DNA from: Naegleria gruberi
Lineage: Eukaryota
Length of the DNA stretch: 1,908 nucleotides
Reading direction: 5' to 3' (one strand)
NCBI GenBank assembly: GCA_000004985.1
Contig: GG739306.1
In this document: positions 1 to 1,854 of the stretch, in pieces
Layout: each line of letters begins with the position of its first letter
Numbering within the stretch: the first letter of the stretch is position 1
The notes under the pieces: generated by a model
What the model saw: only the letters and a program-made list of their open reading frames with translations
Told to the model about the DNA's origin: nothing
Database searches by the model: none
Translations under genes and position numbers: made by a program

Positions 1-5
1 TAGTC

Positions 6-212
6 TCATAGCCTCTTCTTGTTCCTCCTTCTTTTTCGTTCTTCCTCCTCTCTTCTCTTTTTCTTTTCATCTATTATATCAGGAATAGTATTTCGTGGAG
101 AGTGGATCAATTCATGCATTTGTTCATAATATTTAGAATCCTTATCGAAATCTTTGATATCTTCAATATCCTTCACTTCAAAATCATCTATTCTCGTTGA
201 AACCATTATCAA
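6..212 (-). CDS. Open frame with a K/R/E-rich basic C-terminus (..DEKKKRREEEERKRRRNKKRL), ending at TGA 6-8. Probably exon 2 (6..187) of the upstream gene rather than a separate gene.
   Basis: The ORF track starts this ORF at a TTG translated as M (bacterial start rule); the first real ATG is codon 3. The frame is open from 230 down to 6. An acceptor AATAG at minus-strand 192..188 joins it in phase to the 290..616 ORF through a 113-nt intron (188..300). It lies only 77 bp from the upstream ORF on the same strand. Confidence 0.4.
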   Translation of the reverse strand: MIMVSTRIDDFEVKDIEDIKDFDKDSKYYEQMHELIHSPRNTIPDIIDEKKKRREEEERKRRRNKKRL

Positions 213-289
213 ACAATTGTTTGAAACAATTCAATATGATTAAATTCCAATATAAGTGTAAACTCATCTCCATCAAGAGAAAACAATAT

Positions 290-616
290 TCAAAACCTAC
301 ACCCAGTTTCAGGATATCTCTGTTTTAAAGGAACCAAATATTCATCAGCCAAGTCTTCTGATTTTAATCCAACCCCATTGGAAAATTTCGATGTAATTCC
401 TCTCTTCCGAGGTTTACTGAATGGTATCTCTGCTCCACCAGTTTCAATTCTCATACTTTTTAATAAATTAATGGCATTCTTCTTTTCCTCACTGACCATC
501 TTCTTCTTCAGCCGATCCAAATTTCTCAAATGAACATTCACCTGATTTGTTGTTTGCTCGATACTTCTACTGATGGACTTGTATTGAGCATTACATTCTT
601 GGTGTTGTTGCATCAT
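290..616 (-). CDS. Hypothetical small charged protein, 108-codon ORF starting ATGATG at 616. Probably exon 1 (301..616) of a two-exon gene.
   Basis: Uninterrupted 108-codon frame on the minus strand that starts with ATG ATG. Coding GC is noticeably higher than the flanking ~80% AT DNA, and codons such as AAG, GAG and CTG are used. The frame ends at TGA (290-292). A GTAGGT donor sits at minus-strand 300..295, just upstream of that stop. I could not recognise a family; the product is coiled-coil-like and charged. Confidence 0.5.
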   Translation of the reverse strand: MMQQHQECNAQYKSISRSIEQTTNQVNVHLRNLDRLKKKMVSEEKKNAINLLKSMRIETGGAEIPFSKPRKRGITSKFSNGVGLKSEDLADEYLVPLKQRYPETGCRF

Positions 617-732
617 TTTTTTAAATTAAATTTCATGACTGTAGATGAAAACAACTAAAAATGGCGGGAGATTACTAACAGGGTTACCTTAAATAAAATA
701 AACAGCCTGAATAATGATTCAAGAAGCGTCGA

Positions 733-743
733 TGGTTTAGTGG
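733..743 (+). promoter_or_regulatory. Pol III A-box of the tRNA-Gly gene (TGGTTTAGTGG).
   Basis: Matches the A-box consensus TRGYNNARNGG at tRNA positions 8-19. Confidence 0.7.
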
Positions 744-774
744 TAGAATACGGCGTTGCCATCGCCGTGACCCG

Positions 775-785
775 GGTTCAATTCA
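775..785 (+). promoter_or_regulatory. Pol III B-box (GGTTCAATTC) with its final conserved C replaced by the first base of the insertion.
   Basis: The B-box consensus is GGTTCGANTCC. Here GGTTCAATTC is followed by A785 instead of C62, so the insertion junction lies inside the B-box. Confidence 0.6.
777..784 (+). repeat. Target-site duplication, left copy (TTCAATTC, tRNA positions 54-61).
   Basis: Identical 8-mer at 1516-1523. The bases just outside differ (G776 vs T1515, A785 vs C1524), so the duplication is exactly 8 bp. Confidence 0.7.
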
Positions 786-951
786 TTTTGATAGTATGAA
801 TTATTGTGATTGTGTTGTTTCTCAATTTAATTTGGGAATTTCATTTCCCGTTCTCCAATGTTGTGAGCATTTTGCTTTTATTATTGTTAATTCTTTTTAT
901 TTAAATTTCTGTGCGTCGACCAATTATAAACATACTGTACATGTATTAAAA

Positions 952-964
952 TCCGTTACCCGAT
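952..964 (+). repeat. 13-bp perfect direct repeat TCCGTTACCCGAT, copy 1 (copy 2 at 997-1009).
   Basis: Read directly: aaaTCCGTTACCCGATgg versus attTCCGTTACCCGATag, 45 bp apart. Confidence 0.9.
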
Positions 965-996
965 GGTTAATATTTAATGTTATGGATGTATTAATT

Positions 997-1009
997 TCCG
1001 TTACCCGAT
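997..1009 (+). repeat. 13-bp perfect direct repeat TCCGTTACCCGAT, copy 2.
   Basis: Read directly. Confidence 0.9.
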
Positions 1010-1224
1010 AGTAAATTGTTTGAAAATGTAATTCATCATGTAATGTGTTAATTCAAAGTTTGTGAACATCATTAATGAATAAATTTTATTGTGATGACTC
1101 CTAATTAGGAAATTCCGTTTCCCTATACCCAATTATCAATATCTTTAATATTACATTATCAAAATTAATGTGTGAAATACATTTAAATAATAATTTAAAA
1201 AACATTGTATTAATTCAATTTCAG

Positions 1225-1238: not shown

Positions 1239-1273
1239 GCCACATTAGGTAATTCCAAAACCCGTTACCTAAC

Positions 1274-1373: not shown

Positions 1374-1401
1374 ATTCAACATGATGTTTCACATCATGAA
1401 T
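1374..1401. repeat. 28-bp perfect direct repeat ATTCAACATGATGTTTCACATCATGAAT, copy 1. Each copy is an internal hairpin.
   Basis: Identical 28-mer at 1419-1446. Inside each copy, CATGATG (1380-1386) is the reverse complement of CATCATG (1392-1398) around a 5-nt loop TTTCA. The flanking ATTCA/TGAAT extend the stem with a 1-nt bulge. Confidence 0.9.
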
Positions 1402-1418
1402 TAAAAATAATGAACAGA

Positions 1419-1446
1419 ATTCAACATGATGTTTCACATCATGAAT
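1419..1446. repeat. 28-bp perfect direct repeat, copy 2 (hairpin).
   Basis: Read directly; it lies 45 bp after copy 1. Confidence 0.9.
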
Positions 1447-1515
1447 AATATTAAAATAAATAATTCATAATTTCATCATAAAATTAAAAGTTAAATGAAT
1501 TCCAAAAAAGGAAAT

Positions 1516-1523
1516 TTCAATTC
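1516..1523 (+). repeat. Target-site duplication, right copy (TTCAATTC).
   Basis: See the left copy; it is continuous with the tRNA 3' portion. Confidence 0.7.
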
Positions 1524-1535
1524 CCGGTCGACGCA
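1516..1535 (+). tRNA. tRNA-Gly(GCC), 3' portion: duplicated T-loop segment, T-stem 3' half CCCGG, acceptor 3' strand TCGACGC and discriminator A.
   Basis: CCCGG (1523-1527) is exactly complementary to CCGGG at 772-776. TCGACGC (1528-1534) is exactly complementary to GCGTCGA at 726-732. Joining 726..784 to 1524..1535 reconstitutes a canonical 72-nt tRNA. Confidence 0.8.
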
Positions 1536-1547
1536 GTCAGAAGTGAA

Positions 1548-1552
1548 TTTTT
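1548..1552 (+). terminator. Pol III terminator (TTTTT) 13 nt downstream of the tRNA 3' end.
   Basis: T5 run on the coding strand right after the discriminator base. A backup T6 lies at 1682-1687. Confidence 0.6.
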
Positions 1553-1731
1553 AGATAGCTGTTTGCACTCTGCTCTTACTATTTTAGAAATCAGTTTCAT
1601 GCATGTATTTACGTAAATTGGCAAATTTTTAGGTATTGAATATGTATAATTATTGAAAAAATAATCTCGGCTTGACCCTCATTTTTTACTGAAATAGTCC
1701 ACCTCCTTCAATACATTTCATACTAAACTGC

Positions 1732-1736
1732 AAAAA
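1732..1736 (-). terminator. Pol III terminator T5 for the 5S gene (plus-strand AAAAA).
   Basis: A run of five T on the minus strand immediately after the 5S 3' end GTAGTC. The first one or two U may belong to the mature RNA. Confidence 0.6.
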
Positions 1737-1854
1737 GACTACAGCACCACAGGTTCCCAAGTTGTCTCCAACCTCAGTACTGATGTGGCTCGACGATGCT
1801 TAACTTCTCAAATCGGACGGGATGAGGTGCATTCATCGTGATATGGCCGTAGCC
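1735..1854 (-). rRNA. 5S ribosomal RNA gene (~120 nt).
   Basis: The minus strand reads GGCTACGGCCATATCACGATGAATGCACCTCATCCCGTCCGATTTGAGAAGTTAAGCATCGTCGAGCCACATCAGTACTGAGGTTGGAGACAACTTGGGAACCTGTGGTGCTGTAGTCTT. It contains the universally conserved 5S blocks GGCCATA, CCCGTCCGAT, AGTTAAGC, AGTACT, GGAGAC, TGGGAA and GGTGCTGTAG. Helix I pairs 5' GGCTACGGC with 3' GCTGTAGTC. It is followed by a T-run. Confidence 0.88.

Follow-up and report, generated by a model that had tools for sequence, protein, structure and literature searches.

The window (the whole stretch of DNA analysed here) is a 1908-bp contig of Naegleria gruberi that carries, from left to right, part of a protein-coding gene, a split tRNA-Gly gene and a 5S rRNA gene. 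The ORF at 293-616 on the minus strand has 100% identity to the predicted N. gruberi protein XP_002668117 (NAEGRDRAFT_76972), a 108-aa model that falls in the same cluster as NAEGRDRAFT_70788, an N. gruberi protein of 287 aa encoded on a 358,576-bp scaffold. The first 105 residues of NAEGRDRAFT_70788 are identical to the 108-aa model and its remainder matches a second ORF of the window (6-212, minus strand), hence the window is a short contig, either duplicate or haplotype, whose positions 1-616 (minus strand) appear from these alignments to duplicate the 5' part of NAEGRDRAFT_70788 as a paralogue or an allele. NAEGRDRAFT_76972 itself is a truncated copy of that gene, reading into an intron. 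A contig of an independent assembly (ENA contig L002) matches window 2-308 at 99%, and relative to it the window has a 1-nt deletion within a T-run at about position 36 that shifts the frame of exon 2; the overall picture suggests a haplotype variant, a degenerate duplicate or a low-quality contig end. The intron of this protein-coding gene also contains a perfect 16-nt palindrome, TCAAACAATTGTTTGA (209-224), which is broken in L002 by a T replacing the C of window position 214.

At the other end of the window the 5S rRNA gene lies about 200 bp from the tRNA gene and shares 96% identity with a 5S gene of N. fowleri (L004, 12469-12587). The sole match in a six-frame search of the window flanks was an N. 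fowleri gene model overlapping a 5S gene; the annotated N. fowleri protein FDP41_009336 extends into that gene, and this part of the model is probably spurious. The features of the tRNA and 5S loci are:

726-784, plus strand: 5' part of tRNA-Gly(GCC), tRNA positions 1-59, through the T-loop and the first base of the T-stem 3' strand (720-784 is 100% identical to 201-265 of metagenome contig L001)
777-784, plus strand: left copy of the 8-bp duplication TTCAATTC, in the T-loop (overlap of the tRNA halves on L001)
1516-1523, plus strand: right copy of the 8-bp duplication (overlap of the tRNA halves on L001)
1524-1535, plus strand: 3' remainder of tRNA-Gly, CCGGTCGACGCA, whose last ten bases (1526-1535) are the partner of the 10-mer discussed below (identical to L001 266-277)
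1536-1552, plus strand: 3' flank of the tRNA gene, read from the sequence as GT, CAGAA, GTGAA and then a T5 run (1548-1552), a probable Pol III terminator
1736-1854, minus strand: 5S rRNA gene (105 bits)

Joining 726-784 to 1524-1535 yields a 71-nt tRNA-Gly(GCC) identical to the intact gene at 207-277 of L001, and the right-hand segment with its copy of the duplication (window 1516-1535) is likewise 100% identical to L001 258-277. Mapped onto the intact gene, the two halves share exactly eight nucleotides, TTCAATTC (L001 258-265), which comprise the T-loop and the first T-stem base, and the bases directly outside the two copies differ. This overlap identifies the intervening DNA as an insertion with an 8-bp target duplication, and L001 as the empty site. 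At the split gene ARAGORN and Rfam recover tRNA-Gly as a sub-threshold, distorted fit only, and a search for the tRNA pattern in prokaryotic genomes and viral contigs gave no matches. The insertion splits the B box of the gene and itself starts with TTTT, with T4/T5 runs at 786, 870, 876 and 894. Since Pol III terminates at T-runs, the split tRNA-Gly gene is predicted to be dead, and a Pol III transcript from its promoter should not reach position 912. The flanks of the two tRNA-Gly genes are partly shared: CAAGAA stands directly upstream of both (window 720-725 and L001 201-206) in an otherwise unrelated locus, and the 3' flanks are 71% alike (window 1516-1584 against L001 258-322), which on sequence grounds suggests that the tRNA-Gly loci are paralogous or that an upstream element is conserved.

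The insertion occupies 785-1515 and measures 731 bp at 24.4% GC, the length that the original prediction had given it. Its 71-aa ORF has no Pfam match, a six-frame protein search of 777-1535 found no homologue at E <= 10, Rfam placed no family on the insert at threshold (tRNA and group I/II introns included), and an exact 25-mer scan of metagenome contigs for other copies found nothing. A comparison with E. coli genomes and plasmids showed no similarity, excluding an IS element of a cloning host or a vector. The internal features of the insert are:

785-1515, no strand assigned: AT-rich non-coding insertion (GC 24.4%; no Pfam, protein or Rfam match)
795-859, plus strand: module M0, 64-bp direct repeat partner of 1074-1133, ending in the T-arm-like unit 834-853 (local score 22.5 against 11.6 +/- 2.2 in shuffles)
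834-853, plus strand: T-arm-like unit GGGAATTTCATTTCCCGTTC (17/20 against the right junction 1510-1529; aligns to tRNA positions 49-65)
907-921, minus strand: inverted copy of the tRNA 3' end and first flank bases, with the 10-mer at 912-921 and TTCTG at 907-911 as the reverse complement of CAGAA (15/17, gapped score 23.1)
941-1030, plus strand: two 45-bp tandem units (941-985 and 986-1030), each with CCGTTACCCG (repeat families D2 and D3; tRNA alignment scores 19.3 and 17.1)
1074-1133, plus strand: module M1, direct repeat partner of M0 by alignment, ending in the unit GGAAATTCCGTTTCCCTATA (1108-1127)
1248-1267, plus strand: third T-arm-like unit, GGTAATTCCAAAACCCGTTA (16.1 bits against the junction 20-mer, z about 5)
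1374-1446, plus strand: two perfect 28-nt direct repeats (1374-1401 and 1419-1446), each a hairpin with an 8-bp stem (repeat family D4, inverted repeat I1)
1510-1529, plus strand: right junction, consisting of the insert end GGAAAT, the duplication TTCAATTC and tRNA CCGGTC (matches the units at 834 with 21.7 bits, 1248 with 16.1 and 1108 with 14.1, against a background of -6.1 +/- 4.4)

The insert is a repeat-rich body, assembled from degenerate direct repeats, in which the modules terminate in a 20-nt unit (GGNAATTYCNNWWCCCKNT), TATTTCCAA stands in tandem 4.4 times at 1284-1322, and each 28-nt repeat folds as CATGATGT TTC ACATCATG. Two distinct duplications with a 45-bp period occur within it, namely that of the 28-nt hairpin repeats and that of the 941-1030 units carrying CCGTTACCCGAT. 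Its short motifs are strand-asymmetric, with CCGTT five times, CCCG four times and TTCCAA seven times on the plus strand and their complements absent; the CCGTT and CCCG copies fall within 847-1262 and the TTCCAA copies within 1253-1500. The termini read ATTTTGATAG... and ...AAGGAAAT and form no clear terminal inverted repeat, as they share only ATTT/AAAT, and GAATT at equal distance, for 16/30 matches in AT-rich sequence. Several tRNA- or RNA-like candidates within the insert were rejected. A reading of the insert head as a tRNA-Gly copy decayed by C-to-T changes is suggestive by eye but ranks no better than 94 of 2736 offsets. No tRNA-like head or fold was found inside 785-1515 by a tRNA covariance model or ARAGORN, as a tRNA-derived SINE or pseudogene would have. 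GCGTCGA and CCGTTACCCG stand 40 nt apart, against 39 nt in the tRNA, as would fit a degenerate tRNA at 913-985, but the bases between them are random-like and there is no covariance-model match. A C/D-box snoRNA match at 957-1043 on the minus strand (snR55/Z10) is weak at 19.6 bits and E = 1; this segment has an AUGAUGA box and no proper D box, and is probably noise from the many ATGATG motifs.

Within this insert, TGCGTCGACC (912-921, plus strand), read as its reverse complement, is identical to 1526-1535, the final ten nucleotides of tRNA-Gly(GCC), as the original prediction had it. The partner comprises tRNA positions 62-71, which run from the final two bases of the T-stem through the acceptor 3' strand (TCGACGC) to the discriminator A, and in the window the reverse complement of the 10-mer, GGTCGACGCA, occurs a single further time, at 1526-1535, with two matches in 0/200 shuffles. 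The direct match of GCGTCGA (913-919) to tRNA positions 1-7, which had been listed alongside, is real and follows automatically from the complementarity of the acceptor strands. The match continues beyond the tRNA: with one 2-nt gap, 1526-1542 aligns to 921-907 at 15/17 (GGTCGACGCA[GT]CAGAA), where CAGAA are the first bases 3' of this tRNA gene, an extension of only 5 nt. The gapped score of the inverted right flank is 23.1 against 13.9 +/- 1.5 in 150 shuffles (maximum 18.5; z about 6).

How improbable the match is depends on what is counted. For this pre-specified 10-mer on either strand the expectation is about 3e-5 under insert base frequencies, in line with the earlier estimate of 1e-4 or lower; once the choice of match is counted, the estimate rises. 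Any exact tRNA match on either strand at least as improbable appeared in 3 of 3000 dinucleotide shuffles of the insert (about 1e-3), and under a conservative null that kept the GC-rich patches of the insert and shuffled the tRNA, 1.7% (about 2e-2, or one in 60) reached the score of the 10-mer. After post-hoc correction the match therefore stands at about 1e-3 to 2e-2 rather than at 1e-4, still an unlikely product of chance. That one of the few GC-rich patches of the insert simply happens to resemble the GC-rich acceptor end of the tRNA is nonetheless the strongest competitor of the reading we prefer, although we consider it rather unlikely. Six of the ten bases (GTCGAC) are palindromic, and the 7-nt direct match adds nothing of its own; a test on length alone, made with a tRNA string 1-2 nt off, returned a match of at least 10 nt in about 7% of shuffles; the conservative null yields its 1.7%; an unrelated tRNA-Ile matches an overlapping patch through the 8-mer CGACCAAT with a score of 16.6; and no flank homology extends past 5 nt. 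Against coincidence stand the 1e-3 of the information-weighted test, the continuation into the CAGAA of the local flank, and three more independent patches resembling tRNA positions 40-65, which are described below.

An exact complement of a tRNA 3' end inside a putative mobile element recalls the primer-binding site of an LTR retroelement, at which tRNA-Gly would anneal to prime reverse transcription of a small TRIM-like element. The pairing would reach 11 nt with G911, up to C74, and the insert fits the size range of miniature LTR elements, within which 731 bp falls. However, the two termini of the insert show no direct repeat and no LTRs are present, the significant direct repeats being internal (795-859/1074-1133 and short families), and the 10-mer adjoins no repeat end. 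Bases 909-911 are CTG rather than TGG, so the 3' terminus of the primer would be left unpaired with its CCA. LTR elements make duplications of 4-6 bp, whereas the one here is 8 bp. We regard this reading as effectively refuted.

A role at the RNA level, in which the insert would be an oddly placed tRNA or self-splicing intron and the 10-mer would pair with the 3' exon, is equally hard to credit and is effectively excluded. ATTTT and GAAAT at the two ends of the insert can pair, and the 10-mer can make a 10-bp helix with the 3' exon. This pairing would, however, compete with the acceptor stem and builds no bulge-helix-bulge at the splice sites, and no group I/II intron or other Rfam family was found at E <= 10. 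Four T4-T5 runs, signals for Pol III termination inside the insert, lie between the 5' exon and the 10-mer, and an identical gene exists intact and uninterrupted in L001.

The position of the 10-mer within the insert is itself distinctive. AT skew runs from -0.30 to -0.54 over 780 to about 919, is about 0 at 900-960 and reaches +0.3 near the right end, such that the 10-mer lies at the flip (about 900-920), where a T-rich left arm of 127 bp (785-911) gives way to a part composed of degenerate direct modules. Six GC-rich patches occur in the insert, five of which contain CCGTT and/or CCCG, all on the plus strand; the sixth, without either, is the patch of the 10-mer. These observations lend some support to the proposal that the insert is composite with a boundary near 911-922, and such a boundary is likely. 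Neither a nested target duplication nor a repeat of an element terminus could be found convincingly at the seam, the sole candidate being the 5-nt CAATT at 779-783 and 921-925. The notion that 785-911 is an inverted 3' flank of a tRNA-Gly gene is unsupported: when its reverse complement was compared with tRNA-Gly 3' flanks for longer homology, p was 0.79 for the gene's own flank and 0.05 for that of L001, with control segments scoring higher. A derivation of the 10-mer patch from a diverged M1 module (65% over 60 nt) was not significant.

Other parts of the insert also resemble the tRNA. The sequence CCGTTACCCG, present twice, resembles tRNA positions 40-49 (CCGTGACCCG); similarity to positions 40-53 is seen at 953-968 and 998-1007, and to positions 49-65 at 834-853. 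All tRNA-like patches correspond to the 30 nt of the tRNA that surround the insertion site, at most about 20 nt away from it, and none to positions 8-39. In 300 shuffles of the tRNA, three peaks scoring at least 17 appeared once and four never, which together with this clustering argues against coincidence. The right junction, made of the insert end GGAAAT and tRNA TTCAATTCCCGGTC, matches 834-853 in register at 17/20 and also matches the 1248 and 1108 units (z 4.6-6.3). As the junction thereby copies an internal unit, the insert ends inside its own motif, with the T-arm giving a look-alike continuation. This junction mimic may bear more on target choice than the 10-mer does.

Such likenesses could instead reflect functional mimicry of the target, in keeping with the use in target recognition or homing that the original prediction listed as a further possibility, in which case the insert would belong to a family homing to the T-arm and its internal GC-rich motifs would be putative binding or guide sites for an enzyme that reads the target. 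The resemblance of the units 834-853, 1108-1127 and 1248-1267 to the T-arm, the in-register junction, the two copies of CCGTTACCCG and the single orientation of all the motifs are what such a family might be expected to show, and the sub-terminal repeats of Dada transposons likewise recur in their target at a fixed distance from the duplication (PMC3706591). We nevertheless think it unlikely. With one insertion known, target specificity is unproven; the Dada geometry does not apply, as 127 nt separate the 10-mer from the insert end and 2 nt separate its counterpart from the duplication; the 10-mer is single and lacks the motif common to the other patches; no transposase or autonomous partner is known; and the T-arm likeness consists mostly of CCCG within AT-rich sequence. 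A more specific form of this idea, which we hold to be quite improbable and offer as speculation, is an undescribed Naegleria mobile family specific for T-loops that would read its target via the T-arm-like units, the copy of the variable loop and T-stem, and the inverted acceptor 3' strand, the 10-mer then being a target-reading or guide part and not debris.

Dada DNA transposons have a fixed insertion site within multicopy small-RNA genes, among them tRNA-Gly of Perkinsus marinus and of medaka (PMC3706591, PMC8869645). Their copies in tRNA genes often have fragments of other tRNA genes on one side, ascribed to one-ended transposition, and the sub-terminal repeats that also occur in the target were proposed by Kojima and Jurka to serve in target recognition (PMC3706591). 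The N. gruberi insert, known from one insertion, is similar in lying inside a small-RNA gene (in the T-loop of tRNA-Gly), in being without clear terminal inverted repeats and in carrying short sequences that recur in the target gene. It differs in that Dada duplications are 6-7 bp rather than exactly 8 bp, in that the 10-mer, 127 nt from the left end, has no partner near the right end and stands 2 nt from the duplication in the target, and in that it has no transposase or coding capacity, where autonomous Dada copies encode a DDE transposase of the Dada type. Our literature search found no report of a Dada family in Naegleria, nor of Naegleria elements in tRNA genes.

Non-autonomous, MITE-like hAT elements share with the insert an 8-bp duplication (777-784 and 1516-1523) and a small, AT-rich, non-coding body, and may also share with it an abundance of short GC-containing motifs that recur in sub-terminal sequence. 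Among these motifs, CCGTT is the complement of AACGG, the core of the hexamer bound by the Ac transposase. However, the insert ends have only 4 nt in common and lack a hAT terminus of the YARNG type, the duplication agrees with just one of the two positions of the nTnnnnAn preference, and the motifs point in one orientation rather than being mirrored at both ends. Prokaryotic integrative elements cross over in the tRNA T-loop, flanked by the symmetric T-stem, leave a short identical flanking core and carry a tRNA 3'-like sequence; the insert resembles them in its T-loop insertion point, its short identical flanking core and the tRNA 3'-like sequence it carries. Those elements, however, restore an intact tRNA and encode an integrase, whereas here the left junction breaks the gene, there is no integrase, and the copy of the tRNA end is inverted and internal.

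We therefore favor, tentatively, the reading in which the 10-mer is a target-derived relic at a seam within a composite, transposon-like insert. A non-autonomous transposon-like element would have inserted into the T-loop of tRNA-Gly(GCC), duplicating the 8 bp TTCAATTC and inactivating the gene; it is the 8-bp duplication at a precise site, the intact gene elsewhere and the repeat-rich non-coding body that recommend this description. On this view the 10-mer would be a fragment of the target that was taken into the insert, its meaning historical rather than functional. Capture could have come about by aberrant or one-ended transposition at an oppositely oriented tRNA-Gly gene, or by a template switch that copied the opposite strand of the right flank during formation or repair of the insert. 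Both the mobile nature of the insert and the origin of the 10-mer in tRNA-Gly DNA, like the mechanism of capture, are inferred in this account, and mobility and composite structure are judged from the single insert copy examined.

The relic reading draws on the non-random match (by the insert shuffles, the gapped alignment and the tRNA shuffles alike), on its continuation into the local flank, on the skew flip at a GC-rich patch free of CCGTT and CCCG, and on the precedent of Dada copies that bear fragments of other tRNAs (PMC3706591). With T-runs upstream of it, the 10-mer is also unlikely to play a part in any Pol III transcript from this gene. Set against this are the brevity of the 5-nt flank extension and the negative test for longer inverted-flank homology, the lack of a nested duplication or repeated terminus at the seam, the lack of a clear terminal inverted repeat such as a cut-and-paste element would have, and the fact that the 10-mer alone is a one-in-60 event under the conservative null; moreover, the junction mimic and the remaining tRNA-like patches could indicate a functional relation to the target. 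The original prediction had also considered a piece of a tRNA-Gly target captured at an earlier locus. The 15/17 alignment into CAGAA makes such capture plausible. No longer homology to tRNA-Gly 3' flanks was found in the 127 nt beyond it. The extension points, as far as so short an alignment can, to this locus or a close paralogue rather than to an arbitrary earlier one.

The insert probably belongs with those insertions into small-RNA genes that carry target-related sequence. If the 10-mer is mere debris, the locus amounts to an ordinary dead tRNA gene carried by a small duplicate contig, and its value is limited to annotation: the tRNA-Gly called at this locus is broken, and the 108-aa model represents NAEGRDRAFT_70788 in truncated form. 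If the 10-mer and the T-arm-like units recur in other copies, the insert would represent a protist mobile element that homes to the tRNA T-loop and carries images of its target, and such recurrence would help to explain how target-specific transposons read DNA and possibly inform the design of targeted insertion.
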